Source: Anaerolineales bacterium (GTDB taxonomy: Bacteria > Chloroflexota > Anaerolineae > Anaerolineales > E44-bin32). From it: DNA of 38,607 nt. The position numbers and the translations under genes were made by a program. Location of the stretch: assembly GCA_023250385.1 (NCBI GenBank), contig JAHFAU010000002.1, positions 1 to 38,607 of the forward strand, read 5' to 3'. The notes beneath the pieces were generated by a model. It searched no databases. It had not been told where the DNA came from and saw nothing but the letters and a program-made list of their open reading frames with translations. This document shows, one piece after another, positions 7,853 through 38,607 of this stretch. Position 1 is the first letter of the stretch, and the number at the start of each line of letters is the position of its first letter.

Positions 7853-7870
7853 AACCCGGTCTCCTTGTCG

Positions 7871-8131
7871 CTACACTTTCGAGGCCATCTCGTAGACCTC
7901 GGTAATCTCACGGAGCATCTGATCGCGCTTTTCGCCGTCCAACGAGCGCGTCAGGCAGGTCTGCATGTGATCGTCCAGGACGCTGACGCTAATCTTGGTG
8001 AGCGCCGCCTGCACGGCCTGGATCTGTCGAATCACATCGATGCAGTACGCGTCGCCCTCCAGCATGCGCTGGATCCCCCGCACGTGCCCTTCGACTGTCT
8101 TCATTCGTTTCAAGGTTTCCTGTTTCATCAT
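7871..8131 (-). CDS. csoR: CsoR-family copper-sensing transcriptional repressor
   Basis: MMKQETLKRMKTVEGHVRGIQRMLEGDAYCIDVIRQIQAVQAALTKISVSVLDDHMQTC carries the CsoR/DUF156 pattern with the x-C-H-C Cu(I) ligand set. ATG at 8131 is preceded by GGAAGG 8 nt upstream. It lies 18 nt upstream of copA. Confidence 0.9.
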   Translation of the reverse strand: MMKQETLKRMKTVEGHVRGIQRMLEGDAYCIDVIRQIQAVQAALTKISVSVLDDHMQTCLTRSLDGEKRDQMLREITEVYEMASKV

Positions 8132-8283
8132 CTCACGCCTTCCTACCACTAACCCCGTGCCGATCGGTGCCGCGCCACTCTCGCCCTCGTCCACGCTCTT
8201 GCCGGCCGCGTGGCGGGCTGTGGTCGGCCTCGTGGCACGCCATTCTCCCCTTCGTGCCGCCCCTTTTGCCGACCTATTGGGCG

Positions 8284-24203: not shown

Positions 24204-25049
24204 CTACAACCCGCGCAGCACACCGCGAATTAGGCGCTCCAGTCTTGGACCGATCCGCTTGCCTGCTTCCAGCACTTCCGAATGGGTCGTCAACTTTTCA
24301 CCGTCTAGACTCGCCTTATTGCTAATCCCGGAGAATCCCAAAGTCCGCATTCCACCATGCCGGGCGACCGTAATCTCCGGCACGGTGGACATCCCGACAG
24401 CGTCGACCCCGATCATCCGGAGGAACCGCAGGTCGGCTGGAGATTCGAAGGCCGGCCCGCCTAGACAGATGTAGATGCCTTCTCGTAGAGCCAGACCTTC
24501 TTGAGCGGCCACCCGACGGGCCAGGGCTTGGAGTTGGCGGTCGTAGGCTTGGCTCATGTCCGGGAACCGAGGGCCAAATTCTTCCAGGTTCGGACCGCGA
24601 AGTGGAGAGAGCCCGGCCATTCCGATCAAGTTGATGTGATCGATTATCAGCATGATATCGCCTGGTTCGAACGATGGGTTCACTCCGCCGGCTGCGTTGG
24701 TCACGATCAGCGTGTCTGCCCCAAGCCGCTGAAGTACTCGGATCGGGAGCCCAATCCTGGCCATTGGGTGACCCTCGTAATAGTGAACCCGACCTTGCAG
24801 CACGCAGACCGGCATCCCTTCGAGCACTCCCATCAGCAATCGCCCGGCATGGCCTTCGACCGTTGATTTCGGCCAGCCTGGCAGCTCGTCCGTCGGCAGT
24901 GAGATCGAAGTCTCGAGAGAATCGGCCAACTCACCCAAACCCGAGCCCAGGATCATTCCGACTTTGGGGCGCAGGTCTGTGGATCCCCGGATCCGATTCG
25001 CCAGCATGTCGATTTCTTCGATCGTAGGGAATTGATCCTGGTTCATCAT
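24204..25049 (-). CDS. punA: Purine nucleoside phosphorylase (trimeric PNP/MTAP family)
   Basis: Motifs: ILGSGLGELAD, GHAGRLLMG, LQGRVHYYEGH, IVTNAAGG, GPRFPDMSQAY, GPAFESPAD, GMSTVPE. Confidence 0.9.
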   Translation of the reverse strand: MMNQDQFPTIEEIDMLANRIRGSTDLRPKVGMILGSGLGELADSLETSISLPTDELPGWPKSTVEGHAGRLLMGVLEGMPVCVLQGRVHYYEGHPMARIGLPIRVLQRLGADTLIVTNAAGGVNPSFEPGDIMLIIDHINLIGMAGLSPLRGPNLEEFGPRFPDMSQAYDRQLQALARRVAAQEGLALREGIYICLGGPAFESPADLRFLRMIGVDAVGMSTVPEITVARHGGMRTLGFSGISNKASLDGEKLTTHSEVLEAGKRIGPRLERLIRGVLRGL

Positions 25050-25948
25050 TTTGAAGTCAATCGGACCCGGATCGCGTTGGGGCTGCTCAAGCCAAGCAGG
25101 GCCTGGATATCGCGCTTGCTTTTCCCGTGCTGCAGCAGATGCCGGATCAACGAGTGGCGCAAGGAATGCGGTGAAAGATCGCTGCCCAGGTCCACCGCGG
25201 CGGCCCAGCGCTTGACAACCAGCCAGAGCCCTTGCCGACTCAGACGTTTCCCGCGCAGGTTGAGATAAAGGGCGCGCTCGCGGGTGTCGCGGACGAGATG
25301 CGGCCGACCCGCGCTCAGGTAGCGCCCCAAGGCACCCACCGACTCGGCGAGCTGCAGCGTCACCGGCTCCGGTCCGCGCCGCAGCAGGGTTCCCGCCTTC
25401 AGGTCCAGATCCTCTAAGTTGACCTGAACCGCTTCAGAGGCGCGCATCCCAGCCGAGTACAACAAGGCAAGCGCCGCCGCATCGCGCAACGCGCGCGGAC
25501 TCTCGAACCGCGCCGGGGCTGCCAGCAACCGGCGCACCTCGTCTTCCGTGAGGGTTCGGGGCAATCGTCGGGGAGTGCTTGGCGGTTGGAGCTGGTCCGG
25601 GATCCGGCGGCTGACGGTTCCTTCTTCTTCCGACAGGTAAAGCAGGAAGGCCCGGGCGGCCGCCATCTTGCGCGAAACCGTCGACGGCAGGTAGCCCTGC
25701 TCGACGAGCCACTTTGAATACTCTGTCACCATTCGAGCGTTCAGATCGTGGGGCTTGACTGCCCCGCCGGCCCTGGCGCTCAGCACCTGTTCGAACTGCC
25801 GCACGTCGATCGAGTAGGCCGAGATGGTGTTCTTGGCGCGCGCCTGCTCGTCTCGCAGATGGTTAAGGAATCGATCAATGGCAGGCTTCATCTTGCTGCT
25901 GATGCTAAACGCCTCGTTATTATACAGCCGAGGGGGTTTACTTGTCAT
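25046..25948 (-). CDS. XerC/XerD-like tyrosine-recombinase homologue lacking the catalytic Tyr (probably inactive or degenerate)
   Basis: The N-terminal SAM-like core-binding domain reads AIDRFLNHLRDEQARAKNTISAYSIDVRQF. The catalytic domain retains Arg-I (GMRASEA) and HSLRHS (H-x-x-R). The C-terminus LLGLSSPNAIRVRLTSK* replaces the canonical LLGHxxxxTTxxYTHV. The stop overlaps the punA ATG (ATGA). Confidence 0.75.
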   Translation of the reverse strand: MTSKPPRLYNNEAFSISSKMKPAIDRFLNHLRDEQARAKNTISAYSIDVRQFEQVLSARAGGAVKPHDLNARMVTEYSKWLVEQGYLPSTVSRKMAAARAFLLYLSEEEGTVSRRIPDQLQPPSTPRRLPRTLTEDEVRRLLAAPARFESPRALRDAAALALLYSAGMRASEAVQVNLEDLDLKAGTLLRRGPEPVTLQLAESVGALGRYLSAGRPHLVRDTRERALYLNLRGKRLSRQGLWLVVKRWAAAVDLGSDLSPHSLRHSLIRHLLQHGKSKRDIQALLGLSSPNAIRVRLTSK

Positions 25949-26008: not shown

Positions 26009-26992
26009 CTAGCCGGCGCTTATCCAGGCGCTCGCCCGCTCAAGCTGCGTGACCTCCTCCGGCTCCAATCGAACCTCGAGCGCCGCCAGATTATCTTCCA
26101 GCTGCTCTAGCGAGCGGGGGCCGATGATGGGGCTGGTGATGCCCGGCCGCTGCATCAGCCACGCAAGCGCCAGTTGGGAGGTCGAAGCGGCGTGTATACG
26201 AGTCAAGCCCTCCAGGCTGGCCAGCACGTCCCAGGGTCGTCGCTCGCGGGCGTATTGCTCGAGACGTGGGCTTCCCGCCAGGCGGCCGTCGGCCGGCGCC
26301 GGCTCGCCTTTCCGATACTTGCCGGTGAGAAAGCCGCGGGCAAGTGGGCTATAGGGAATTACCCCCAGGCCATAGGTCTGGCAAACCTGCTCGAGCTCCT
26401 GTTCGAATGGCTGACGGGCCAACAAGCTGTACTCGGGCTGCAAGCACACATAGCTCTCCAGCCCCAGCCGGTCGGAGCTCCAGAGCGCCTGCATGAGGCG
26501 CCACGCCGGATAGTTCGAACAACCAAGGTAGCGGACCACTCCCTGATGGACAAGATCATCGAGTGCCCGCAGGGTCTCATCAATCGGTGTATCGGGATCC
26601 ACCGAGTGGGTTTGGTACAGATCGATGTAGTCGGTCCCGAGGCGGCGCAATGAGTTCTTAACCGCCTCCATGATGTGCAGCCGTGAGAGTCCTTGCTCGT
26701 TCGGCCCCTCCCCCATCTGACCTCGAACCTTAGTTGCCAGCACGACCTGGTCCCGGGGTACGACTTTCATGCCCAGCCACTTGCCGATGATGCCCTCCGC
26801 GACCCCGCCGGGATTGCCGGCGGCCCAGCGGGAATAGACATCGGCGGTGTCGATGAAGTTGATTCCGCGCTCGGCCGCTCGAGTGAGGACCTTGAGCGAG
26901 ACCTGCTCATCGGCCGTCCAGCCGAACTGCATGGCGCCAAGGCAGAGCGGGGTGACTTTGAGCCCAGTCTTTCCTAGATTGCGGAATTCCAT
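26009..26992 (-). CDS. Aldo/keto reductase
   Basis: MEFRNLGKTGLKVTPLCLGAMQFG...INFIDTADVYS...ATKV...YIDLYQTHSVD...LGCSNY...IPYSPLARGFLTGKY... is a canonical AKR pattern. I placed the start at ATG 26992. Confidence 0.9.
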   Translation of the reverse strand: MEFRNLGKTGLKVTPLCLGAMQFGWTADEQVSLKVLTRAAERGINFIDTADVYSRWAAGNPGGVAEGIIGKWLGMKVVPRDQVVLATKVRGQMGEGPNEQGLSRLHIMEAVKNSLRRLGTDYIDLYQTHSVDPDTPIDETLRALDDLVHQGVVRYLGCSNYPAWRLMQALWSSDRLGLESYVCLQPEYSLLARQPFEQELEQVCQTYGLGVIPYSPLARGFLTGKYRKGEPAPADGRLAGSPRLEQYARERRPWDVLASLEGLTRIHAASTSQLALAWLMQRPGITSPIIGPRSLEQLEDNLAALEVRLEPEEVTQLERASAWISAG

Positions 26993-28568
26993 GGGTTGCC
27001 TCCGAATTGCATTCGCCACTGCCGGCCTTCGAGTTCAATCACTGCTGCTAGCTCTGGCTGCGCTGATAGTCACCTTCCTGCTGCGAGCCGCTATTTCAAC
27101 CGGATATCTAGCCTACCACGCGTGGGCCCGGGCCCAGCCACTCCGTGGTCCGGCTCAAACTCTGCAACTGCCTGCATCGCTTGGCTCCTTTGCGCTGCCC
27201 CACCTGGTCGATCCATTCGGAGTGTTGGCAGCCGGATTGTATGTCGAGGCCGGCCCGCCGGCCTTCTTATTCCTGGGGGCCGGGCTGCTGATAGTCGCGG
27301 TGCTCGCCCGCCAGCTGACTTGGGCGGCCGAACCCAACCGACAACAAGCCAGGGCCTACGGCCAGCTCGAGCAACTGAGCCGCGCGATTCTTAACACCCC
27401 GCCCGGGCCTGATCGAATCCCGCTCCTGCTCGAAGCACATCTGGCTGGGATGTTTCCGTCCGGGCCCTTAGCAGTTTGGCGCTTTCCAGATCAATTCTTC
27501 TACAAGCAGCCGGACAACTGGAACCCCGGCCTCGAGCCGATCTGGACCTGGCTGTGCAGTGAATTCGAGGGACGCGAAATCCTTCCGGGCGAACCCCTGC
27601 CGTGGAATGGCGCTCGCGATCACCATAGACCGATCCTTGTCGCACCTATCTGCGGCCCGAATGACACCCAGCCAATCGGAGGGATCTATCTAAAGCTCCG
27701 AGCCGATCAGCCATGGGACCGGGCCTCGGTCCGTAACCTGGTAGAGCCGGCAGAGGCTCTCGCCTCTTTGATCGCCTCTGCGCTGGATCAGGCTGCAGCC
27801 TACGACAACCGACTGGAGTTCGAGCGCGTGTCGCATGAACTGCGACTGGCAGGTGAGATCCAGTCCGGTTTGATCCCCTTTGACATCCCCCGCATCCCGG
27901 GTTGGCAGCTGGCCGTAACACTGAATCCGGCGGGGGAAACCTCCGGAGACTTCTTCGATATCATCCCACTGCCGGAAGGCAGGATTGGGTTGGTCATCGC
28001 GGATGTCGTCGACAAGGGCATTGGAGCCGCGCTCTATATGATCCTCAGCCGGACCTTGCTGCGGACCTATGCGGTCGAGGCGGATTCCGACCCCGCGCTG
28101 GTCTTCTTCGCCACCAATGCCAGAATGATTGCGGATACTACATCCAATCTCTTTGTCACCGCATTCTATGGAGTGCTGGATCCGGCAACCGGGAAACTGT
28201 CCTACAGCAATGCCGGGCATAATCCGCCCTATGTCCTCCGGTCCAGTGAGAAGATCATCATTCAGGAGCTCATTCGAACGGGTCTTCCGATCGGTGTCCA
28301 GGCGGGGGCCAGCTGGTCGAAGGCTTCGGTCCAAATCGAACCCGGAGATCGGTTAATCCTGTATACGGACGGAGTCCCAGACGCCCGAAACCCAAGCGGC
28401 CAAGGCTTGTCCATCCAACCGATCTTGGAGGTCGCAAAACAAAACCTCGGCCTCACGGCCGAGGACCTTCAATCCAAGTTGTTGGGGGAGATCTCTGCCT
28501 TCGTAGCCGGTGCGGCTCAGACCGATGATATCACTCTGATGGTGCTGGCGCGCGACCTTCCCGGTTAG
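26991..28568 (+). CDS. Membrane-associated PP2C-type phosphatase (SpoIIE/RsbU family) with N-terminal TM region and GAF-like sensor
   Basis: GETSGDFFDIIPLPEGRIGLVIADVVDKGIGAALYM...FVTAFYGVLD...YSNAGHNPPY...LILYTDGVPDA...QTDDITLMVLA are SpoIIE-domain motifs. The start is uncertain: ATG 26991 overlaps the divergent AKR start by 2 nt, and a downstream non-ATG start is possible. Confidence 0.8.
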   Translation: MGCLRIAFATAGLRVQSLLLALAALIVTFLLRAAISTGYLAYHAWARAQPLRGPAQTLQLPASLGSFALPHLVDPFGVLAAGLYVEAGPPAFLFLGAGLLIVAVLARQLTWAAEPNRQQARAYGQLEQLSRAILNTPPGPDRIPLLLEAHLAGMFPSGPLAVWRFPDQFFYKQPDNWNPGLEPIWTWLCSEFEGREILPGEPLPWNGARDHHRPILVAPICGPNDTQPIGGIYLKLRADQPWDRASVRNLVEPAEALASLIASALDQAAAYDNRLEFERVSHELRLAGEIQSGLIPFDIPRIPGWQLAVTLNPAGETSGDFFDIIPLPEGRIGLVIADVVDKGIGAALYMILSRTLLRTYAVEADSDPALVFFATNARMIADTTSNLFVTAFYGVLDPATGKLSYSNAGHNPPYVLRSSEKIIIQELIRTGLPIGVQAGASWSKASVQIEPGDRLILYTDGVPDARNPSGQGLSIQPILEVAKQNLGLTAEDLQSKLLGEISAFVAGAAQTDDITLMVLARDLPG

Positions 28569-28972
28569 CGGCTCTTGCGCATCGTCAGCCGATTGCCGTT
28601 GCCGGGGATCGGCTCAAACTGGACCTCGTCCATTGATCCGCGGATCAGCCGCAGCCCCGCCCCCCGCGGGTTCAATTCCTCCAGAGGGACCTCGAAATCA
28701 GCTTCCGGCACGCTGGAGGGATCGAACGGCCGGCTCCAATCGAGCAGGACAACTGTCACTCCGCCATCATCCGCTTCGATCGAGCATTCGATCTGTCCAT
28801 CGCCTTCCCCGCCGTAACCGTGCTCGATGATGTTGGTGCAAGCTTCATTGGTGGCCAATTCCACTGCGTACGCCGCAGAGTCGTCCAACCCCGCCCGCTT
28901 TGCAGTGCTTGAGACGAACTCGCAGATTCGTCCCAGGTTCTCGTATCGAGCCTCGAACGTCGCCTTCGGCAT
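28565..28972 (-). CDS. Anti-sigma regulatory factor, Ser/Thr kinase (RsbW/SpoIIAB-like HATPase_c)
   Basis: LATNEACTNIIEHGYGG (N-box) and GAGLRLIRGSMDEV (G-box-like), in a 135-aa protein directly downstream of a STAS protein. Confidence 0.8.
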   Translation of the reverse strand: MPKATFEARYENLGRICEFVSSTAKRAGLDDSAAYAVELATNEACTNIIEHGYGGEGDGQIECSIEADDGGVTVVLLDWSRPFDPSSVPEADFEVPLEELNPRGAGLRLIRGSMDEVQFEPIPGNGNRLTMRKSR

Positions 28973-29365: not shown

Positions 29366-30268
29366 TCACCCAATGAGCAGCGCGTCGACCGCCAACGCCA
29401 GAAAGATTCCTCCAAGATACAGGCTCGAGTAGCGATACATCCTCCAGGCGAATCGATTACCGCCTCGCCGCTGCAAGATCAAGGCATGGCGGATCAATCC
29501 GAGCCCCAGCAATACCGCCGCCAGCAAGAAGAACCCACCGCCCAGCCCTACCAGCGGGAGCAGGATCGTTAGAGCAACCACCTGCAGACTGTAGAGCAGT
29601 ATCTGGCGCCGGGTCTCCACCTCCCCCGAGACGACCGGCAGCATAGGAATCCCGGCCCGGGCGTAATCTGACCGCTTAAGCAGCGCCAGGGCCCAGAAGT
29701 GGGGCGGGGTCCAGAAGAAGATCACCGCGAACAGAAAGAACGCCGGCAGGCTGAGGGAACCGGCGGCTGCTGCCCATCCGACCAACGGGGGAATCGCGCC
29801 CGCTCCTCCACCGACCACGATGTTCTGCGGGGTGCTCGGTTTGAGCAGGACGCTGTAGAGCAGGGCGTAATAGATGATCCCGGCCAGGGCGAGGATCGAG
29901 CTGAGCGGGTTCACGCCAATTGCCAGGACCGCCAGGCCGGCCACACACAGCGCCAGGCCGAAGAGCAGGCCCTGCATCGGCCTGAGCCGATGGTCAGCAA
30001 GGGCACGACCCATGGTGCGAACCATCCTGCGATCGATGCCCCGGTCGATGTACTGATTGAGAGCCCCCGCCCCTCCGGCGGTGAGCCCGCCTCCGAGCAG
30101 GGTCAATGCCACCGTTGGCAGCGGGGGAATTCCACCAATTGCGACCACCATCCCGCAAAAGGTCGTCAACAGCAGCAACGCGACGATCGCCGGCTTCGTG
30201 AGCGAGAGGTAGTCTACCAATCGGATGAACGCGCGGGAGGCTTGCGACTGCGTCAGACCGCTGGTCAT
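29366..30268 (-). CDS. ctaB: Protoheme IX farnesyltransferase (heme O synthase)
   Basis: UbiA-family motifs NQYIDRGIDRRM and LYSVLLKPSTPQNIVVGGGAGAIPPLVGW, plus FFWTPPHFWALAL. The ATG overlaps the subunit I stop (ATGA). Confidence 0.9.
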   Translation of the reverse strand: MTSGLTQSQASRAFIRLVDYLSLTKPAIVALLLLTTFCGMVVAIGGIPPLPTVALTLLGGGLTAGGAGALNQYIDRGIDRRMVRTMGRALADHRLRPMQGLLFGLALCVAGLAVLAIGVNPLSSILALAGIIYYALLYSVLLKPSTPQNIVVGGGAGAIPPLVGWAAAAGSLSLPAFFLFAVIFFWTPPHFWALALLKRSDYARAGIPMLPVVSGEVETRRQILLYSLQVVALTILLPLVGLGGGFFLLAAVLLGLGLIRHALILQRRGGNRFAWRMYRYSSLYLGGIFLALAVDALLIG

Positions 30269-31725
30269 GGGATTGACTCGGGCAGGATCCCTTGGGTTGC
30301 CCGGCCGGTCCGCCAGGCGAAAAACATGTTGTAAAGAAACAACAAGGATGCGCCGGCCAATATCAGCGCCCCTCCGCTGGAAGCCAGCTGGAACAGATTG
30401 ACTTCAGGGCCGAATTCAAAGACCCGGCGTGGGATGCCCTGCAGCCCGATTAGGAGCATCGGCAGGAAGGCCAAGTGCGCACCTCCGGCGTGGGCGAGGA
30501 AATGGAGCTTCCCGAGGTTTTCATCGTAGTCTTTGCCGGTGAAGCTCGGAAAGACGTAATAGATACCGGCAAACAACCCCGACATCACCCCGCCGAAGAG
30601 GGCGAGATGCGAATGGCCCGAGACAAAGTAGCTGCCGTGCAATTGAAGGTTGGCGGGAACCGAGGCAAGTACCAGTCCACTGAGGCCGGCCAGCAAGAGC
30701 ATCGAAATGAATCCGAGTGAGAAAAGCATCGGCGTGCTGAACCGGACCTGGCTAAGCCAGAGGGTGGTCAACCAAGCCAGGCCGATGAAAGCCAGCGGGA
30801 CGGCGACCGCCATTGAAGTCAGCATGAACGAGACCCGGACGGTCGGGATCAATCCGCTGGCGAACATATGTTGACCCCAGGAGACCAGGCCCAATCCGCC
30901 AACTGCCAGCATGGCAAGGCTGACCGAGCGCCTGGCCACAAGTGGCCGGCCGGTGTTGGCCTGAATGATCTCGGACACCGTCCCGATCGCCGGCAAGAGC
31001 ATGACGGTCATTGCTGGATGCGCGAAGAACCAGAAAGCGTTCTGCCACAGGGTCAGCCCAAGCGAGCTGGCGAGAAAACTTGGCCCGCCGACCAGCCGGT
31101 CCACCAGCAGCGCGCTCAGAGCCGCCAGCAAGACCGGGACCGAGATCAGCGCCAGCGCCGAGCTAATCAGGCTGGCAATCGCGAATTGTGAGAGGCCGGG
31201 TGAAGCGGTCCGCTGTGCCTGAAGAATGGTCGCCAGAAATGAGGTCGCATTACAGCCGAGGGAGAGAACGAGCACGATCAGGCCGGCAACCCACACGGTC
31301 TGGCCTGCGCCACCCGCCTGGGCGGAGAGCGGGACAGAAGCAGTCCAGCCGGAGGAGGCTCCGCCGAGGAAGAAACTGGCCAGCATGAGCAGTCCGCCGG
31401 GCGGCAGCAGCCAGAAACCCAACCCGCTCACCCGGGGCAATGCGCTCCGGGTCACACCGAGCACCCGCCCCAACAGCGCATGGGTGAGGCCGGCAACTGC
31501 GGGCATCAGCCAGAGGAAGATCATGATTGAGCCGTGGTTGGTGAAGGCCCGGGAATAAGCCTCCGCGCCCAGCAGCTCCACTCCAGGCAGACTGGCCTCG
31601 GCCGTCATCCCGAGCGCCAGAGCGCCGCCGAGCAGGAAGAAGACGAAGCTGGTGACCAGGAACTGCACAGCCAGCACCGCCGGATCCGTAGACGGACGAA
31701 GATAGCTGCGGCCGGATCCGCTCAT
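30265..31725 (-). CDS. Heme-copper oxidase superfamily subunit I homologue with non-canonical active site
   Basis: Roughly 12-TM protein. Matches to canonical landmarks:
- FTNHGSIMIFLWLMP: helix II His.
- WQNAFWFFAHPAMTVMLLP versus canonical WFFGHPEVY.
- VSWGQHMFASG versus WAHHMF.
- VSGHSHLALFGG versus HFH.
- GIPRR versus GMPRR.
I placed the start at ATG 31725, 2 nt after the subunit II stop. Confidence 0.8.
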   Translation of the reverse strand: MSGSGRSYLRPSTDPAVLAVQFLVTSFVFFLLGGALALGMTAEASLPGVELLGAEAYSRAFTNHGSIMIFLWLMPAVAGLTHALLGRVLGVTRSALPRVSGLGFWLLPPGGLLMLASFFLGGASSGWTASVPLSAQAGGAGQTVWVAGLIVLVLSLGCNATSFLATILQAQRTASPGLSQFAIASLISSALALISVPVLLAALSALLVDRLVGGPSFLASSLGLTLWQNAFWFFAHPAMTVMLLPAIGTVSEIIQANTGRPLVARRSVSLAMLAVGGLGLVSWGQHMFASGLIPTVRVSFMLTSMAVAVPLAFIGLAWLTTLWLSQVRFSTPMLFSLGFISMLLLAGLSGLVLASVPANLQLHGSYFVSGHSHLALFGGVMSGLFAGIYYVFPSFTGKDYDENLGKLHFLAHAGGAHLAFLPMLLIGLQGIPRRVFEFGPEVNLFQLASSGGALILAGASLLFLYNMFFAWRTGRATQGILPESIP

Positions 31726-31727
31726 GA

Positions 31728-32426
31728 TCACTCTCCGCCCCCAGATTGCAACCACTGCTCGAAACTGGCCGGGTCCTCAACCTGCACCGTTGCGATCATT
31801 CCGGTGTGACCCGGGCCGCAAAACTCGGCGCAGACGGCCTCGTACTCCCCGGTCCGCAGTTGAGTCAACGCTAGGGAAGTCACCCGATCCGGCAGGGCGT
31901 CTACCTTACCTCCGAAGGCCGGAACCCAGAAGGAGTGGATCACATCTTTGGATCTGAACTCTAGCACGACCGCACGTCCCGCCGGCAGATGCAGTTCGTT
32001 GGCGATAACGCCGCTCTCCGGGTAGCGGAACTCCCACTGATACTGGCTGGCCGTGATTTCGACCTGCAGCGGATCGGGCCCGGACGCTTCCATCAGCAGC
32101 AGGACTCGGATCGAGTACACGCTGAGCGCAAGCACAATGGCGGCCGGTACCGCGAGCCACAACAATTCCAGGGACGAGTTCGAATTCCCAATGGCCACCG
32201 GGGACTGGAAAAGCCGTCCGCGTATTGCCGCAAAAACGAGCAACCCCTCCACTCCCAGAAACACTGCAGTTGCAAGCCCGAAGAAGACTCGGAGCAGCTG
32301 GTCGACCAGAACAGCGCGATCGCTGGCAGCTTGTGGCAAGGGGCGCACGAAGCTGGCAACCGCCACGCCGACTCCGATCAGGAGCAGGACCAGAATCGTT
32401 ACGGCAAGGATGTTTCGTTCACGCAT
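31728..32426 (-). CDS. coxB: Cytochrome oxidase subunit II with intact CuA site
   Basis: Two N-terminal TM helices, then a cupredoxin domain with DVIHSFWVPAFGGKVDALP and CAEFCGPGHTGM (H...C-x-E-x-C-x3-H-x2-M CuA ligands). Confidence 0.9.
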   Translation of the reverse strand: MRERNILAVTILVLLLIGVGVAVASFVRPLPQAASDRAVLVDQLLRVFFGLATAVFLGVEGLLVFAAIRGRLFQSPVAIGNSNSSLELLWLAVPAAIVLALSVYSIRVLLLMEASGPDPLQVEITASQYQWEFRYPESGVIANELHLPAGRAVVLEFRSKDVIHSFWVPAFGGKVDALPDRVTSLALTQLRTGEYEAVCAEFCGPGHTGMIATVQVEDPASFEQWLQSGGGE

Positions 32427-32552: not shown

Positions 32553-32957
32553 ATGACTACCCGTCACCAGATTTACGTCGTAGCAATTCTCGTGCTCGCG
32601 AGTGGACTTGCGGCCTGTGGCGGCCCGAAGACCGCGGAGCTGGCGATGTCCATGTCGGAGTTTTCTTTCTCACCCGCCAGCGCCACTGTGCCGGCAGGGG
32701 CCGAAGTCACCCTCACCGTGACCAACAGCGGCACGATCGAACACAACTGGGTGCTGCTGGATGCCGGTTACCAAGCCTCGGCCCCATTCGACGCAACTGA
32801 CCAGGCGTATGTTGTTACCGAGACCAAGGTTCCGGCAGGCGAAGTCCAGACCTTCACCTTCACCGCGCCATCGAAGGCAGGGTCATACCAAATCGTCTGC
32901 AGCGTCCCTGGCCACTTGGAGGCCGGCATGAAGGCCACCCTGACCGTTGGCGGCTAA
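32553..32957 (+). CDS. Type-1 (blue) copper cupredoxin lipoprotein
   Basis: The signal peptide carries the lipobox LAAC (MTTRHQIYVVAILVLASGLAACGG). The T1Cu ligands are H in GTIEHNW and C-x4-H-x4-M in IVCSVPGHLEAGM. GGAGGA lies 8 nt before ATG 32553; an alternative ATG is at 32547. The gene is divergent from coxII. The upstream part of track ORF 31989..32957 is antisense shadow. Confidence 0.85.
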   Translation: MTTRHQIYVVAILVLASGLAACGGPKTAELAMSMSEFSFSPASATVPAGAEVTLTVTNSGTIEHNWVLLDAGYQASAPFDATDQAYVVTETKVPAGEVQTFTFTAPSKAGSYQIVCSVPGHLEAGMKATLTVGG

Positions 32958-33524
32958 AGCAGGCGAAGTGGCCCGATTGCCCTCTGCTCGCCACATCTGG
33001 CGCAGACCCTTGTACTTGCGGCGGAACTCGGCCGGGTCCTGCTGAATGGTCTCGGTGGAAAACTGAGGGAGCAACTCGGCCAGCAGGCGATCCAGCTCGC
33101 TGAACTGAATCCATCCCTGGCGTAGAAAAACTAACACGACCATGTAATCCGGCTCATCGCCCCTTGCGATGAGCCGGATCGCGGTACTGTACGGGTCGAA
33201 ATGATATAGCTTGAGCAGCGCTGGCGAACTGCGCCCCGCGATCTCCCAACCCTGAGCGCGTCGTTCGTGCCCCTCAGGGAGCGGGACAACTTCCGCGGGT
33301 GACTCACACAGGATGCGCAATTGGCGCTGAGCCGCCACATGCTCGATCGATTGTTGCAGCTCGGTGAGATCAGCGGCTTGCGCCATGTACACCAATTGAT
33401 CCGTCCATTCCCGCCAGCCCTCGACCACCAGTGAGCTCTCGCCGACCAGATAGAGCCGGGCCGGCGAGGTCAGCCGGTCGTCCAGGGCCGCCACAAATTC
33501 GTAGATCGCCGGTCTTGTGATCAC
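32883..33524 (-). CDS. Hypothetical protein (possibly a degenerate nucleotidyltransferase-fold / DUF6036-like protein)
   Basis: GTG 33524..33522 overlaps the stop of the upstream FGE-like gene (GTGA). LYLVGESSLVVEGWREWTDQLVY and AIRLIARGDEPDYMVVLVFL weakly resemble NTase-fold proteins. The last 75 nt overlap the convergent cupredoxin gene. Confidence 0.45.
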   Translation of the reverse strand: MITRPAIYEFVAALDDRLTSPARLYLVGESSLVVEGWREWTDQLVYMAQAADLTELQQSIEHVAAQRQLRILCESPAEVVPLPEGHERRAQGWEIAGRSSPALLKLYHFDPYSTAIRLIARGDEPDYMVVLVFLRQGWIQFSELDRLLAELLPQFSTETIQQDPAEFRRKYKGLRQMWRAEGNRATSPALAANGQGGLHAGLQVARDAADDLV

Positions 33525-34195
33525 TTTGGCCAGCCATCCCAGGCGCAGCGGAACCCGATCGCCGTGTTGCGAAACGCCGGCCCAAAATAGACCCGGGCCG
33601 CAGCCCGCGCATCCTTGAAGCCTTTGTAATCCCACGAGCCGCCCTTCAACACCCTCCAGTCCGCACCGAGTTCGTAGAGAGAGCTCGTCCACTCCCATAC
33701 ATTTCCGGCCATATCCATCACACCGTAAGGCGAGGCGCCTCCCGGGTGAGCGTCTACCGGCCGCGTGCCGGCGCTCTTCGATTCGCTGGAGTTGCAATTC
33801 TCTGGCACGAATTCATTTCCCCACGGATACAGCCAACCCTGCGAGCCTCGGGCTGACTTCTCCCATTCGGCCTCGCTGGGCAGCCGAGCGCCAGCCCAGT
33901 TCGTATAGGCCGCGGCATCTTCCCAGCTGACGTTGACTACCGGGTGCCTGGCGGCATCGAGCGGAAACTTGCCCCCAGGCCATTTGGGGGGCCGATGGCC
34001 GGTTGCCTCGACGAAACGTGCATATTCCACATTCGTAGTCGGAAATTTGGCAATCGAGAACTCATCCAGTTCGACGGCCTCCATGTCCTTCCCCATCAGG
34101 AATCCTCCGGCCGGGATCCGGATGATTTCCGCCGGGTCGTGAGCTCGAGGGTGGAGGGCTACTTGTACCGTCGCTTGGGCGTCTTTTCTTTCCAA
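33521..34195 (-). CDS. FGE/SUMF1-fold (formylglycine-generating-enzyme family) protein lacking the catalytic Cys pair
   Basis: Motifs: IPAGGFLMGKD, HPVVNVSWEDAAAYTNWAGARLPSEAEWEKSARG, YPWGNEF, SPYGVMDMAGNVWEWTSS, RVLKGGSW...NTAIGFRCA. There is no signal peptide. The start is uncertain; TTG 34195 overlaps the upstream gene by 37 nt. Confidence 0.8.
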   Translation of the reverse strand: MERKDAQATVQVALHPRAHDPAEIIRIPAGGFLMGKDMEAVELDEFSIAKFPTTNVEYARFVEATGHRPPKWPGGKFPLDAARHPVVNVSWEDAAAYTNWAGARLPSEAEWEKSARGSQGWLYPWGNEFVPENCNSSESKSAGTRPVDAHPGGASPYGVMDMAGNVWEWTSSLYELGADWRVLKGGSWDYKGFKDARAAARVYFGPAFRNTAIGFRCAWDGWPK

Positions 34196-34866
34196 TCGTA
34201 GACCCAGAAGGTATAGGAGTAGGGGAACATGGTTTGGACGACGTGAAACGGTTCGTATTCAAACAGGCGTCTCATCGCCCATGAAAAGCGGTAACGAGGA
34301 TGCTCGGGGGTGATGACTTCAACGACGCAGTTAACCTGAAAACTGACAAAGATCGGTGAATCCCCTGTCCACAGCACGGCGGCCATCGGGTTCCGGCTCA
34401 AGTTGCGGTAGGTGCTCCCCTCGAAGATCTCGAGCAGGCCGAGCCGCCTCCAGTCGATGTGTTCCGGGTGAGAGTAGAACGCACGCGCGGTCGCGATTCG
34501 CAGCCGCCGGGTGTCGTCCACCGCGTGCGGAGGGAGCTGCTCGATCTCGGCGACCGCACCCTCCACAAGCTTCAGGTAATGCTCGATGAATTCGTCTTTG
34601 GGGGTGAACCCCACCCCTTTGTTGGCCAGGTTAGGGAAGGCCGACTCGATGTCCCAGGTGCCGACGACCGGAAGATGACCGGCATTGAATGCAACGTATC
34701 GGTCGTGTTCGATCGCATCGTATACCCGCTCTTTGTAGTCGAGCTGCCAGCGGATAAAGCTTTCAGGAAGCTCTTTGACCTGATATTCCTGTACCTTCCC
34801 ATTAGTGCGGACTCGGGCTAGCCCATCGGAAACTACGACCTGGCCAATCAGATCAACCTCCGACAT
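34159..34866 (-). CDS. Hypothetical protein (C-terminal half possibly PNPOx-like split-barrel)
   Basis: ATG 34866 is preceded by a strong AAGGAG. The composition looks like real protein (rich in aromatic residues, E and K). NLSRNPMAAVLWTGDSPIFVSFQVNCVVEVITPEHPRYRF resembles split beta-barrel FMN/heme-binding proteins, but the assignment is weak. Confidence 0.55.
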   Translation of the reverse strand: MSEVDLIGQVVVSDGLARVRTNGKVQEYQVKELPESFIRWQLDYKERVYDAIEHDRYVAFNAGHLPVVGTWDIESAFPNLANKGVGFTPKDEFIEHYLKLVEGAVAEIEQLPPHAVDDTRRLRIATARAFYSHPEHIDWRRLGLLEIFEGSTYRNLSRNPMAAVLWTGDSPIFVSFQVNCVVEVITPEHPRYRFSWAMRRLFEYEPFHVVQTMFPYSYTFWVYDWKEKTPKRRYK

Positions 34867-34892: not shown

Positions 34893-36152
34893 TCAGAGCA
34901 GCCGCTCCACCGCAGCCGGAACCGCCTGCGGGCTGCGGTCGGCAAGCTGGAACGCCGGGGGCCGCTCAAAACCGGCGAGGGCTCGCCGCATGATCTCTTC
35001 CGTTATCCAGCGGCTGGACTGACTTCGGGCATACGCCTCGACGCCTCGTTCAACCTTCTGGCGGATAAACGTAATCGGGATCCGCTCCAGCCGAGCGCGC
35101 GCCTCGCCACTCCAGAGGATCTCCTGGGCGGCGATTGCAGCCCCCGTCGGTTCATAGCTGCAGCCCGGGTCTTCTTCCAGGAAGTCGCCGAAGCGGGCAT
35201 AGGCTCGGCAGCGGCAGCCACCGCAGAGCTCCTTGTATTCGCAGCGGCCACAGCGGCCTTTCAGCTGGCCAGGATCGCGCAGCGCCAACAACTCAGGCGC
35301 GCTCTGCCAGATCTCAGAAAACGAACGTTCCCGGATATTCCCGACCGGCAGCGCCATGTAGGGGCAGGGTGTCACCTCCCCTTCCGGAGTGATCCGGCAA
35401 TACTCGGTCCCCGCCATGCAGCCGCCGCTCTCCATCCCGCCCAACCCGGCCTCGAAGGCAATCCGTTTGAAGTGCGGTGCGCACTTGGCCCGCACCAACA
35501 TCGGGCGGTAGCGCTCCTGGGACTCCGCCAAGAACGCCAGCATCTCTTCGGTTCGCGCTGCGGTGAGATCGTTCATTTGCTGACCGCGTCCGGTCTGCAC
35601 GAGAAAATATAGATTGAATGACCAGGCCCCGAGCTGGCGGGCAAACTCCAGCAGCCGGGGCACTTCAGAATAGTTGAGGTCCATGACGGTGCTTTGGACC
35701 AGTACTTCGAGGCCCTGAGCTCGGCAGACTTCGAGCGCCCGCACCGATTGCTCCCAGGAGTGGGGGCCGCCGCGGAAGCTGTTGTGGACGGCGGGATCGG
35801 TCGAGTCGATGCTGATCCCGACCCCCCGCACCCCACATTCGATCATCTTCGTGGCGACCAAGTCGTTCACCAACACGCCATTGGTGCCCATGACGACCCA
35901 GATCCCACGCCCGGAGGCGTAGCTGGCGATATCGTAAATGTCTTTGCGCAGCAGGGGTTCCCCGCCGGTCAGGATCAACATCTCCGTCCCCAAGCCAGCC
36001 ATCTCATCGATCAGTGCCAGGCATTCGGAGGTGCTTAATTCGTGCTCGGCCTTGACCCCGGCCTCCAGGTAACAATGGGGGCAGCGCAGGTTGCAGCGCT
36101 TGGTCAGGTTCCAAGAAACTAAGGAGGGCCGAAACTCGGTCTGGGTGCTCAT
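34893..36152 (-). CDS. Radical SAM/SPASM enzyme of the NirJ/AhbC/AhbD-like type, fused to a C-terminal PCP_red domain
   Basis: The rSAM cluster motif is CNLRCPHC (36072-36095). Also present: LTGGEPLL, the family-typical FNLYFLVQTGRG, and SPASM cysteines GGCMAGTEYCRITPEGEVTPCPYM...GRCGRCEYKELCGGCRCRAYA. The C-terminal extension ILWSGEARARLERIPITFIRQKVERGVEAYARSQSSRWITEEIM (34971-35120) matches the BchB/ChlB C-terminal domain. I placed the start at ATG 36152. Confidence 0.8.
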   Translation of the reverse strand: MSTQTEFRPSLVSWNLTKRCNLRCPHCYLEAGVKAEHELSTSECLALIDEMAGLGTEMLILTGGEPLLRKDIYDIASYASGRGIWVVMGTNGVLVNDLVATKMIECGVRGVGISIDSTDPAVHNSFRGGPHSWEQSVRALEVCRAQGLEVLVQSTVMDLNYSEVPRLLEFARQLGAWSFNLYFLVQTGRGQQMNDLTAARTEEMLAFLAESQERYRPMLVRAKCAPHFKRIAFEAGLGGMESGGCMAGTEYCRITPEGEVTPCPYMALPVGNIRERSFSEIWQSAPELLALRDPGQLKGRCGRCEYKELCGGCRCRAYARFGDFLEEDPGCSYEPTGAAIAAQEILWSGEARARLERIPITFIRQKVERGVEAYARSQSSRWITEEIMRRALAGFERPPAFQLADRSPQAVPAAVERLL

Positions 36153-36178
36153 GCCGCCCTTCGTTCCCGGCAGCGCGT

Positions 36179-36622
36179 TCACATCTCGGACATTCCGAGG
36201 GCGTCGCGGGCCTTGCTCATGACTGCGGGGCTGACCTCGGGGTAGCCGTTTCGCCTGGCCCAATCGGTGTACAGCCGGCGGACCATCCCCTGCACGAAGG
36301 CCGGAGCCGCGGCCAAGCGCTTTTCGGCCGCCTCGGTCCAGACCGGATCCGGTAGTCCGCGGTCGTCGATCCAGCCGGTTTCGCCCTCCAGCGAGCGCCG
36401 AATCTGATCCATCGGCCCTGCCTCCCCCTCGGAGAGCGTCTCATGCCCGATGGTCACTCCAAGGCTGGATACCAACTGGGTCTCGCCTGGGTTGGTGACC
36501 ATCGAGATTCGACGGCCACAATTGGGGCAGGAATACCGGATCGCCATGACACCACTGGCGCGGTCGGTGTCATTCGAGACGAACTCCATCGTTTCCTGAC
36601 ACTCTTCGCAGCGGAATTTCAC
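36179..36622 (-). CDS. Zinc-ribbon protein with C-terminal PCP_red domain
   Basis: The N-terminus has CEEC...CPNC (a 4-Cys ribbon). The C-terminus reads VWTEAAEKRLAAAPAFVQGMVRRLYTDWARRNGYPEVSPAVMSKA (36200-36340). The GTG start overlaps the stop of the upstream ATPase gene (GTGA). Confidence 0.7.
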   Translation of the reverse strand: MKFRCEECQETMEFVSNDTDRASGVMAIRYSCPNCGRRISMVTNPGETQLVSSLGVTIGHETLSEGEAGPMDQIRRSLEGETGWIDDRGLPDPVWTEAAEKRLAAAPAFVQGMVRRLYTDWARRNGYPEVSPAVMSKARDALGMSEM

Positions 36623-37455
36623 GCCAGCATTCCTCTGAGCCGATCCGCCAGTTCAAGGATCGCTCGGGCGGCCGGGGTCTCCGGATTGATCAGTACCCCG
36701 GGCCGCCCGTTCTCGGTGCTCTGGGCCAACTTCGGATCGAAAGGAACACTCGCCAGAATGGGGATCCCCACGGCATCCGCCAGCTCTCGGACCCGCCCCG
36801 ACTCGGCCGTCTCGGCCATGTTCTCCACCAAGCCGAGCAGCCGGGCTCCGGCCTGCTTAGCCCCGACAGATGCCCGCCGGACGACCAGCATGGAAGCTTC
36901 GCTGGGGGTTGTGATCATTACTGCGCCGCGGAGCTCCGGCAGCAGCCTCAGAAGCGTTTCGAAGCGGTCGGCGCCCGGAGGCATGTCAATCAAAAGATAG
37001 TCTAGCTCACCCCACTCGGTATCGGCCAGGAACTCGCGCAGAACGTTGGCTTCCAAAGTCCCGCGCCAGACAAACGAATCTTCGGCCAAGCCCCCATAGT
37101 GTCGCCAGCGGACGGCCGTACCATCGTCTTTCAGGAACAAATCCATCGACATCACTCGCACATCGCCGACTCCGATGGCCGGCCGCGCCCCTTCCGGGCC
37201 AAACTGCGGCCGCTGCCCGCGGGCACCCAGCATCAGCGCCGCGCTCGGCCCGTGGATATCGGCGTCCAAGACCCCCACCTTGGCCGCCTCGGTCCCCAGA
37301 GCGGCGGCCAGGTTGGCGGTCAGCAAACTCTTACCGACCCCACCTTTGCCACTGGCGATTGCAACCACATGGCGGACAGAGGCAAGCCGGCGGGCGACCG
37401 CCGCTCGCTGCGCAACAACCTGCCCCAGGACGTCCACGGGCGGAAGGCTTTCCAC
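36619..37455 (-). CDS. Mrp/NBP35/ParA-type P-loop ATPase lacking all cysteines
   Basis: Motifs: VVAIASGKGGVGKSLLTANLAAAL (deviant Walker A), VGVLDADIHGPS, WRGTL, LDYLLIDMPPG, GLVENM. The canonical C-x-x-C Fe-S ligands of Mrp/ApbC are absent, and the protein contains no Cys at all. The start codon is GTG. Confidence 0.8.
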   Translation of the reverse strand: MESLPPVDVLGQVVAQRAAVARRLASVRHVVAIASGKGGVGKSLLTANLAAALGTEAAKVGVLDADIHGPSAALMLGARGQRPQFGPEGARPAIGVGDVRVMSMDLFLKDDGTAVRWRHYGGLAEDSFVWRGTLEANVLREFLADTEWGELDYLLIDMPPGADRFETLLRLLPELRGAVMITTPSEASMLVVRRASVGAKQAGARLLGLVENMAETAESGRVRELADAVGIPILASVPFDPKLAQSTENGRPGVLINPETPAARAILELADRLRGMLA

Positions 37456-37500: not shown

Positions 37501-38607
37501 TCAGCCACTCGGACCGGCGGCCCCGCCAGTGCCCTGGTCGCGCGCGGCGGATTCGGGGCCCGACATGCCCCTGAAATAACCAAAAGCTCCCTCGCTCTCG
37601 GCCTCCCAAAGCTCGCGCACCCTGCGCAGCATTTCGTCGGCGATCTCGAAATTGACCTCTTGATGTCCTGCTTCCCGCGCCAGACTGTCCACCATCTCTT
37701 TGACCATCTGGCGTTCAAACTTCGGAACTCGCGAAAGACGTTCCAGGGCGGAGTCATTCCAGATCAGCTCGGTCCCCGGCCCGTCGTCGCCCGCATAGCC
37801 CAGCCGGCGGGCCACCTGAATCGTCACTTCCAGCGTCACTTCGGGAAGCTGTTTCTCACGGGCATACCGTTCCATGGCCAGCATGGCCATCGGCTGAATG
37901 AACGGGGGTACCCGCGACTGCACCCGTGCGAGTGCCGCTTCGGTCCAGGGAAACGCCCGCTCGTGAGGTATGTATTCTTCAATCGGCGAGCGGGCCTTTT
38001 GCCGCGCTTCGGCGAGTTTCCGGTCTTCGGCCTCCAGCCCCATGAGATGCTTGGCAGAAGGCGGCAGTATCTCACTAAGCGCCCCGTACAGGAGATCGAG
38101 GGTCACCCGCCCATACCCCTCATGGCGGGCGTACTCCTCGACCGAAGCCTTAGCCATCGCCTGAGCGAAGGGCGGCGCCCGCAGCACAAGCTTGAGGGCG
38201 TCGTCGTCCCACTCCAGCGGCTCCTCCTCGTACTCCTCCAGCAACGGGATATCGAAAGGTCGGGCGTCGGCCGCCCCGACGATCAGCAGATTGTTGATGG
38301 CCAGCCGCAGCAGGTTATCGGTGTTGGACCCGAGGTCCGCGCCCTCCACATGGTGAGCTCCCCAACGCCCAATAACCACCAGGTCGTAGGCGTCCCGCTC
38401 ACACACGTCAATGATCTTTGCAAACGGCTTACCAACCAGCACCTCAGTGGTGATCTCCACCCCTTCCTCGGCCGCCACCTGCTCCGCCCGGAGCAGATTG
38501 GCTTCGCAGACCTTCTTCAGGCCGCGATCGATGATGTTGTTGTGCAGCTCTTCCTGCTCTTCGAACTTGAACACCTTGCCCGCCTGGTAGGAGAGCACGT
38601 AGCGAAT
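37501..38607 (-). CDS. Universal-stress-protein (Usp) domain protein followed by three tandem PCP_red domains (5' end outside window)
   Basis: The frame is open to the window edge. The C-terminal half of a Usp domain reads YDLVVIGRWGAHHVEGADLGSNTDNLLRLAINNLLIV. Three repeats follow:
- LEWDDDALKLVLRAPPFAQAMAKASVEEYARHEGYGRVTLDLL (38083-38211)
- FPWTEAALARVQSRVPPFIQPMAMLAMERYAREKQLPEVTLEVT (37813-37947)
- LIWNDSALERLSRVPKFERQMVKEMVDSLAREAGHQEVNFEIA (37621-37761). Confidence 0.75.
   Translation of the reverse strand: MRYVLSYQAGKVFKFEEQEELHNNIIDRGLKKVCEANLLRAEQVAAEEGVEITTEVLVGKPFAKIIDVCERDAYDLVVIGRWGAHHVEGADLGSNTDNLLRLAINNLLIVGAADARPFDIPLLEEYEEEPLEWDDDALKLVLRAPPFAQAMAKASVEEYARHEGYGRVTLDLLYGALSEILPPSAKHLMGLEAEDRKLAEARQKARSPIEEYIPHERAFPWTEAALARVQSRVPPFIQPMAMLAMERYAREKQLPEVTLEVTIQVARRLGYAGDDGPGTELIWNDSALERLSRVPKFERQMVKEMVDSLAREAGHQEVNFEIADEMLRRVRELWEAESEGAFGYFRGMSGPESAARDQGTGGAAGPSG

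Follow-up and report, generated by a model that had tools for sequence, protein, structure and literature searches.

The closest described relatives of the gene treated here are the radical S-adenosylmethionine (SAM) enzymes AhbD and NirJ2 (EC 1.3.98.6). The gene encodes an AhbD/NirJ2-like protein with a C-terminal PCP_red domain, and it lies on a stretch of 38,607 nucleotides (contig JAHFAU010000002.1, positions 1 to 38,607, assembly GCA_023250385.1) from an Anaerolineales bacterium of the Chloroflexota; the whole stretch is called the window below. AhbD homologues exist in organisms of the coproporphyrin-dependent haem pathway which have no other Ahb enzymes, and they may replace ChdC there (PMC13564367; PMC7242693; PMC10114771). 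According to reviews, an AhbD-like enzyme "might" perform the last coproporphyrin-dependent step where ChdC is absent or oxygen is lacking; the three articles cited mention neither a PCP_red fusion nor the phyla described in this study. ChdC/HemQ catalyses the same reaction as is proposed here, at the same step after CgoX and CpfC (PMC13564367); however, it has an unrelated chlorite-dismutase-like fold, depends on H2O2, and uses neither Fe-S clusters nor SAM.

The PCP_red domain (Pfam PF08369) is otherwise found as the C-terminal domain of BchB/ChlB of the dark-operative protochlorophyllide reductase (DPOR). The reviews on DPOR that were consulted leave this C-terminal segment of BchB undescribed, and literature searches returned nothing on PF08369 or PCP_red together with radical SAM. 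Stand-alone PCP_red domains are represented by the nuclear magnetic resonance structures 2KRU and 2L09 (Asr4154), in which a module of ~60 aa folds independently; unlike the protein studied here, these are not fused to an enzyme. To our knowledge, PCP_red has been solved twice by structural genomics and a function has never been assigned to it. Likewise, we know of no AhbD-like enzyme of the kind envisaged by the reviews that has been characterised outside sulfate reducers and archaea, nor of an established physiological electron acceptor of AhbD.

An AhbD/NirJ2-like enzyme with a fused PCP_red domain

The best explanation of the observations is that the catalytic core represents an AhbD-type radical SAM haem synthase of a separate subfamily with a wide distribution. 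What is new is that this subfamily is defined by a fused PCP_red domain and by a conserved, undescribed module of partner genes. The longest frame of the gene, with a TTG start, covers 34893-36263 of the minus strand; the ATG at 36152 gives a product of 419 aa, lies 27 nt past the stop codon of the upstream gene, and agrees with the N-termini of the homologues. With this start, the gene and its parts are as follows.

34893..36152, minus strand: AhbD/NirJ2-like radical SAM/SPASM enzyme with C-terminal PCP_red, 419 aa (open reading frame, Pfam, NCBIfam)
35640..36110, minus strand: Radical_SAM domain, residues 15-171 (Pfam PF04055, E 3.5e-30)
35160..35483, minus strand: SPASM region, eight Cys for two auxiliary [4Fe-4S] clusters (Pfam PF13186, Cys spacing)
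34980..35114, minus strand: PCP_red (PF08369), residues 347-391, three predicted helices (Pfam and AlphaFold2)
34893..34979, minus strand: C-terminal tail of 28 aa and stop codon (variable in the alignment; predicted disordered)

All three motifs quoted in a preliminary description of the sequence, namely CNLRCPHC (C20/C24/C27), FNLYFLVQTGRG, and CGGCRCRAYA, were found in the reading frame, the first of them at nt 36072-36095 (minus strand) inside the Radical_SAM domain. The sequence was aligned in a set of 24 homologues from several phyla (alignment A1), with a mean column identity of 71%. The C20-X3-C24-X2-C27 motif and the SAM-binding GGEP motif (G63-G64-E65-P66), which identify the protein as a radical SAM enzyme, are invariant in this alignment, and so are the eight Cys residues of the SPASM region (224, 245, 263, 301, 304, 310, 313, and 331). 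The SPASM domain itself was matched by Pfam at residues 245-304 (E 9.5e-12, 45.5 bits against a cut-off of 21.5). The full SPASM motif of AhbD has been published as CX20-33CX17CX36-37CX2CX5CX2CX17-35C (Fix et al. 2023, PMC10452713), and the spacing observed here, C224-X20-C245-X17-C263-X37-C301-X2-C304-X5-C310-X2-C313-X17-C331, fits it exactly (X20, X17, X37, X2, X5, X2, X17).

The two best NCBIfam matches were NirJ2 (TIGR04055, 340.6 bits) and AhbD (TIGR04545, 313.6 bits), both of which span the entire model, whereas the NirJ, AhbC, and NirJ1 models scored 190-218 bits and covered the N-terminal half only. The models of peptide maturases (MftC, PqqE, AlbA, SkfB, and others) reached at most 165 bits; with respect to their own cut-offs, MftC scored 153.6 against 265, PqqE 141.2 against 381, and AlbA 87 against 850. 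The AhbD/NirJ-type radical SAM/SPASM identity, which had been assigned from motifs at the outset, is thus borne out by the end-to-end matches and by the low scores of the maturases, and the protein very probably belongs to the AhbD/NirJ lineage as an enzyme that acts on tetrapyrrole side chains, and not to the peptide maturases. It shares with AhbD and NirJ2 the full-model alignment, the CX3CX2C motif, the eight-Cys SPASM spacing, and the tetrapyrrole context. However, it is not a canonical AhbD, because both of its top scores (313-341 bits) are under the 500-bit equivalog cut-offs. It also differs in that canonical AhbD and NirJ2 lack PCP_red, and in that AhbD-PCP_red does not lie beside ahbA, ahbB, or ahbC, occurs in diderm and largely aerobic phyla, and has conserved partner genes of its own. 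Sequence and fold searches of the PDB found no structure of AhbD or NirJ. Therefore, the closest solved structures are PqqE, SkfB, SuiB, and anSME; structure searches yielded generic SPASM folds only (PqqE, SkfB, BlsE, SuiB, and anSME), and SPASM enzymes headed the Foldseek list.

The PCP_red match (E 2.3e-9) reaches 37.6 bits and thus exceeds the Pfam gathering threshold of 32.5, and its position agrees with that given in the preliminary description (34971-35120). AlphaFold2 (AF2) predicted helices at residues 349-356, 361-377, and 385-392, followed by a tail (residues 394-419) with a predicted local distance difference test score (pLDDT) below 50, i.e. predicted disorder. A search of a collection of 5.8 billion proteins was conducted and the 120 best homologues were analysed; all 120, at 66-90% identity, carry Radical_SAM, SPASM, and PCP_red. 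Within the PCP_red domain, residues W347, A351, R354, L355, I358, P359, F362, R364, G370, E372, and A375 are invariant among the 24 aligned sequences. Since PF08369 is present in all 120 best homologues and the signature residues are invariant, the match is not due to chance. Nor is the fusion a local artefact, since it recurs in all of these homologues, in many phyla, and in one clade of PCP_red-bearing proteins. The domain that had been noticed at the C-terminus is therefore real and is kept in orthologues.

A scan of one genome per species gave at least 573 confirmed relatives. The best 80 of them, at 64-90% identity, come from Anaerolineae, Latescibacterota, Myxococcota, Calditrichota, Thermoanaerobaculia and other Acidobacteriota, Rhodothermales, Marinimicrobia, Pirellulales, Opitutales, and Deferribacteres. 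The subfamily is present in at least 80 verified species-level genomes and probably in several hundred in all. The locus L004 (88% identical) is syntenic with the window throughout the 29-38 kb stretch, and the window is Anaerolineaceae-like. When relatives were clustered at 50% identity, 32 of the 150 representatives had a PCP_red C-terminus, and in a neighbour-joining (NJ) tree the PCP_red-bearing proteins formed a single clade with three exceptions inside it. This clade adjoins groups of ~340-aa proteins, among them P0150, one of the nearest relatives without PCP_red, which is a NirJ2 equivalog with 533 bits on the NirJ2 model and thus above the 500-bit cut-off. According to Pfam, some relatives (P0126, P0127, P0129, P0133, P0142, and P0148) have two to four tandem PCP_red domains after SPASM. 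The AhbD-like relatives P0121 and P0160 have N-terminal extensions of 160-180 aa which have no Pfam match.

A conserved gene module with further PCP_red copies

The fusion had initially been taken as an isolated one. Instead, PCP_red is present on two neighbouring proteins as well, and the enzyme lies within a conserved multi-gene module; overall, five copies are distributed over three adjacent proteins of the window, which comes from a non-phototroph. The AhbD-like gene is the fourth of seven genes in a tight minus-strand string, and the others are as follows.

37501..38607, minus strand: gene 1 (partner 3), Usp with three tandem PCP_red domains (Pfam PCP_red x3, 104.5 bits, and Usp)
36619..37455, minus strand: gene 2 (partner 2), Mrp/ApbC/NUBPL-type P-loop ATPase, 278 aa (Pfam ParA/NUBPL, E 1.3e-60)
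36179..36622, minus strand: gene 3 (partner 1), N-terminal 4-Cys zinc-ribbon/rubredoxin-like knuckle and C-terminal PCP_red, 147 aa (Pfam PCP_red, 39.7 bits)
34159..34866, minus strand: gene 5 (partner 4), 235-aa protein, for which 'DUF235' is our own label, PNPOx-like split beta-barrel (AF2)
33521..34195, minus strand: gene 6, FGE-sulfatase-domain protein (Pfam PF03781, E 2.8e-48)
~32883..33540, minus strand: gene 7, 'c14' homologue of ~200 aa, no known family, start codon uncertain (tblastn)

A signature, W-x3-A-x3-L-x3-(I/V)P-x-F-x-R...AR, is common to the PCP_red copy of the AhbD-like protein, BchB, and the four other copies of the window, and in the NCBIfam BchB models PCP_red aligns to the last ~55 positions. 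The likeness to BchB/ChlB thus consists in a 45-aa helical domain with this signature and in a host enzyme that handles tetrapyrroles; in contrast, the nitrogenase-like BchN/BchB/BchL core is missing here, and PCP_red is joined instead to a radical SAM enzyme, to Usp (three copies), and to a zinc ribbon. Membership in a DPOR was considered and rejected, as the BchB models match the last ~55 positions only and the neighbouring ATPase is of the Mrp type without cysteine.

The Usp-PCP_red gene of the window runs off the edge and lacks its 5' end; full-length orthologues (e.g. L016:5935-7866) comprise ~645 aa, in which Usp occurs twice and PCP_red three times. The ATPase gene shares a 4-nt overlap with the next gene, and its product scores 193.7 bits on the NCBIfam MrpORP model, which is under the cut-off of that model. 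It resembles the Mrp/ApbC/NBP35 Fe-S carrier ATPases in its P-loop NUBPL fold and the deviant Walker A motif GKGGVGKS, and most orthologues retain the CxxC after VENM. However, the window copy and its Anaerolineae relatives are devoid of cysteine: the CxxC is kept in 31 other loci and lost in six Anaerolineae loci (L004, L010, L011, L012, L016, and L034). Because every cysteine has been lost, the ATPase of the window and of these Anaerolineae cannot bridge a cluster in the canonical manner. The idea that it serves as a BchL-like electron donor was rejected, as the protein is of the Mrp/NUBPL type without any cysteine and its matches to NifH/BchL are at most 36 bits.

The stop codon of the zinc-ribbon-PCP_red gene is the one that precedes the start of the AhbD-like gene. 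Two CxxC motifs are found in 44 of 45 orthologues of its product and the linker motif KCPF(T/S/P)G in 37 of the 45. The Anaerolineae lineage in which the ATPase has lost its CxxC also lacks this linker motif, which may indicate a functional connection between the two. Since it is confined to one lineage, the joint loss counts as a single evolutionary event.

The gene for the 235-aa protein begins 26 nt after the stop codon of the AhbD-like gene. Its product matched no Pfam or NCBIfam family, and its 473 homologues, which are 71-92% identical, are all annotated as 'hypothetical'. The AF2 model (pLDDT 84) has a PNPOx-like split barrel, with weak Foldseek matches (best E 3.7e-4) to flavin mononucleotide/F420 binders and to the haem-binding proteins HupZ, HutZ, and ChuZ. 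This model would suit a flavin electron acceptor or a protein that receives haem. The FGE-sulfatase gene, whose product has an EgtB/SenA-like C-terminal domain, was found in 4 of 83 loci, all from Anaerolineae; it is lineage-specific and probably not a core member of the module. The c14 family has no Pfam or NCBIfam match; with L007:12192-12788 as tblastn query, the window copy (32949-33521) showed 46% identity (E 1.5e-56). Scans for promoters and terminators gave no signal that exceeded the shuffled expectation.

Neighbours were counted by tblastn/blastp with defined queries within 10 kb of the radical SAM gene, and many of the loci are short contigs. With this limit, orthologues were found in 46 of 83 loci for the zinc-ribbon-PCP_red protein, in 46 for the Mrp-like ATPase, in 45 for Usp-PCP_red, and in 29 (69-76% identity) for the 235-aa split-barrel protein. 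COX1 is present in 33 of the 83 loci, and 38 loci have CydA-like and cytochrome c genes. The module is also accompanied by small conserved genes without a known family, c14 in 25 loci, c10 in 28, c12 in 25, and c17 in 18; examples of such genes are L007:12192-12788, L007:12843-13223, L007:8121-8642, and L003:8778-9140. More distant relatives of the enzyme have similar neighbours: P0127 (44% identical, with three PCP_red copies) has Usp-PCP_red and a HemY-like oxidase at its flanks, and P0124 (49% identical) is accompanied by Usp-PCP_red, a CydA-like gene, a cytochrome c gene, and SCO1. Around one canonical NirJ2, all of the module partners are missing.

The arrangement around the module varies among phyla. 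In Latescibacterota, Calditrichia, and Rhodothermales (L003:1030-6623, L006, L009, L048, L052, L069, and L073), the module lies between two oxidase clusters. In one, a CydA-like gene (cytochrome bd subunit I family) precedes several cytochrome c genes; the other is a DUF420-COX2-COX1-haem o synthase-COX3 operon, and a CopD-like gene lies nearby. In the Acidobacteriota 'Multivoradales' (L018, L022, L033, L041, L050, and L067), AhbD-PCP_red shares its locus with hemY, COX1, and genes of the NrfD type (alternative complex III-like). Within 10 kb, none of the Usp, Mrp, and zinc-ribbon partners was found there, and a four-transmembrane protein, c15 (174 aa), is encoded directly upstream. In the window itself, two genes of haem and oxidase biology lie past a cupredoxin gene, beyond the module string.

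30265..31755, minus strand: haem-copper oxidase subunit I, COX1 (CtaD_CoxA 389 bits, under the cut-off; Pfam COX1)
29366..30268, minus strand: haem o synthase, CtaB (NCBIfam 333 bits against a cut-off of 246; Pfam UbiA)

Proposed reaction and its alternatives

The conserved domain architecture, the placement among known families, and the neighbouring genes lead us to infer that the enzyme is an AhbD-type coproheme decarboxylase, which would convert coproheme to haem b in the last step of the CgoX-CpfC route and feed haem o synthase and the oxidases; a probability of roughly 0.6 can be given to this reading. The preliminary description had held that the reaction could not be read from the sequence and had listed several candidates. 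That list can now be narrowed, with decarboxylation of coproheme to haem b as the most probable of them. Its view of the substrate as a tetrapyrrole is backed by the neighbouring hemY and hemH genes of relatives and by the haem o synthase and oxidase genes.

In loci from Myxococcota and Acidobacteriota, the gene stands directly beside that of a HemY-family oxidase (230-233 bits on TIGR00562, whose cut-off is 97.85), often together with ferrochelatase. Overall, 20 of 81 loci have a HemY-family oxidase within 10 kb, which in at least 10 of them is the immediate neighbour, and 6 loci have ferrochelatase (HemH). Two of the neighbouring HemY proteins scored 203 and 239 bits on CgoX of Bacillus subtilis (3I6D) and 143 and 190 bits on PgoX of Myxococcus xanthus (2IVD). 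Therefore, the coproporphyrin-dependent route is favoured. A second AhbC/NirJ-like radical SAM gene was found within 10 kb in none of the 83 loci, so the module is not an ahbABCD cluster; the annotation of the window contains no AhbA/B-like genes either. A literature search that paired the carrier taxa with AhbD returned irrelevant results only.

By analogy with the biochemistry of AhbD, the [4Fe-4S] cluster bound by the CX3CX2C motif would cleave SAM, and the resulting 5'-deoxyadenosyl radical would take hydrogen from the propionates of rings A and B of Fe-coproporphyrin III (coproheme). Each propionate would then lose CO2 and one electron to give the vinyl groups of haem b, and the electrons would be removed via the two SPASM auxiliary clusters. 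In the pathway, the enzyme would stand in for ChdC/HemQ in the order CgoX, CpfC, AhbD-PCP_red, and its haem b would go to the haem o synthase and terminal oxidases encoded nearby. The PCP_red domains may hold the synthase together with the Mrp-type Fe-S carrier/ATPase, the rubredoxin-like candidate electron carrier, and the split-barrel flavin- or haem-binding protein.

Several points weigh against this assignment. The NirJ2 and AhbD scores (340.6 and 313.6 bits) are well under the equivalog cut-offs, and the window has neither hemY nor hemH, the link to which rests on other phyla. Aerobes with haem-copper oxidases are numerous among the carriers, where an oxygen-labile radical SAM haem synthase would not be expected. 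The AF2 confidence across the PCP_red region is only moderate (pLDDT 62-82), and the NJ tree was computed rapidly from the distances among 113 cluster representatives, with neither curated references nor support values.

The HemY neighbours also bear on the possibility that the substrate is metal-free. The enzyme would then substitute for CgdH/HemN and convert coproporphyrinogen III to protoporphyrinogen IX in the protoporphyrin-dependent route, and its neighbours would be PgoX and PpfC. The gene order hemH-hemY-radical SAM is equally compatible with both routes, and HemY of M. xanthus is a characterised PgoX (PMC10740692), Myxococcota being among the carriers. However, the neighbouring HemY proteins, including one from a Myxococcota metagenome-assembled genome, score 50-60 bits higher on the B. 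subtilis CgoX than on the M. xanthus PgoX. Moreover, the characterised members of the AhbD lineage all use coproheme, and the iron of the substrate has been proposed to take part in electron transfer (PMC10114771). A metal-free substrate is unlikely.

The oxidase context raises another possibility, i.e. that the enzyme makes no haem b and instead tailors haem for the adjacent oxidases, either by an oxygen-independent step to a modified haem or by a NirJ-like removal of side chains. Tight linkage to haem o synthase, COX1, DUF420/CtaM, and the CydA-like and cytochrome c clusters would suit this role, as would the scores under the AhbD cut-off and the absence of CtaA-like genes from those oxidase operons that were inspected. 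However, its position directly beside hemY and hemH in Myxococcota and Acidobacteriota indicates a role in the synthesis of haem b itself. Neither nir genes nor genes for haem d1 were observed, the NirJ and AhbC models cover the N-terminal half only, and the sequence carries no sign of oxygenation or methyl-oxidation chemistry. Haem tailoring is quite improbable. One specific form of it, an oxygen-independent haem A synthase, was suggested by the oxidase context without CtaA and was rejected as the principal explanation in view of the hemY and hemH genes that adjoin it in other phyla.

It is very improbable that the protein is a HemW-like haem chaperone or sensor, which would bind haem via PCP_red and deliver it to the oxidases with little or no turnover. 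HemW does provide a precedent for the radical SAM fold as a chaperone (PMC10114771), PCP_red is found on non-enzymatic partners, and the module is located in oxidase operons; however, the CX3CX2C and GGEP motifs and the eight SPASM Cys are invariant across phyla, and ~70% cross-phylum identity suggests strong catalytic constraint. A SPASM maturase acting on a ribosomally synthesised and post-translationally modified peptide (RiPP) encoded by a small neighbouring reading frame is extremely improbable: the SPASM domain, the solved structures closest to the protein (PqqE, SkfB, SuiB, and anSME), and the small conserved reading frames c10, c12, and c17 of some neighbourhoods would speak for it, but the maturase models score 150-200 bits below AhbD/NirJ2 and far short of their own cut-offs, Pfam detected no RiPP recognition element or other leader-binding domain, no precursor-like gene was identified, the PDB, being without AhbD and NirJ, has only SPASM folds to offer as structural neighbours, and the context consists of tetrapyrrole and respiratory genes.

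As to the PCP_red domain of the proposed coproheme decarboxylase, a substrate-capping role such as that put forward in the preliminary description is an unproven analogy with BchB. We propose instead that PCP_red is a modular unit which binds tetrapyrrole or docks partners, and that it is less likely a fixed active-site lid, because it occurs in one to four copies, has two non-catalytic carriers, and folds autonomously in 2KRU and 2L09. A more far-reaching idea, which we put forward only tentatively and with considerable doubt, is that PCP_red is a general tetrapyrrole-handling or docking module and that the gene set encodes an unrecognised machine for haem synthesis and delivery, assembled via PCP_red. 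Such a machine may comprise AhbD-PCP_red, Usp with its three PCP_red domains, the zinc-ribbon-PCP_red protein, the Mrp-type ATPase, and the split-barrel flavin- or haem-binding protein. In aerobes, its task would be to supply an oxygen-labile synthase with clusters and electrons, and nascent haem b would go straight from it to haem o synthase and the oxidases.

Other window genes and significance

Elsewhere in the window, a SpoIIE-type PP2C phosphatase (573 aa) is convergent with an HATPase_c_2 anti-sigma-type kinase (26847-28972); the two look like a partner-switching pair, apparently unrelated to the AhbD-like gene. At 5423-8194 and 8977-10671 (minus strand), a copper P-type ATPase with HMA domains adjoins a metal-sensing repressor of the CsoR family, and a 564-aa protein with PHP and Schlafen AlbA_2 domains lies farther on. 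At 25046-25948 (minus strand), a XerC/D-like tyrosine recombinase (Phage_integrase and SAM-like N-terminal domain) adjoins a PNP_UDP_1 phosphorylase.

The subfamily offers a handle on PCP_red, and its conserved partners, namely the rubredoxin-like protein, the split-barrel flavin- or haem-binding protein, and the Mrp-type ATPase, are concrete candidates for the factors that serve an AhbD-like enzyme. If the machine described above exists, it would give PCP_red its first function outside chlorophyll synthesis, and the long-sought electron-transfer partners of AhbD would be identified. If the module is confirmed, the annotation of the haem pathway would change in Chloroflexota, Myxococcota, Acidobacteriota, Rhodothermales, Latescibacterota, and Calditrichota.

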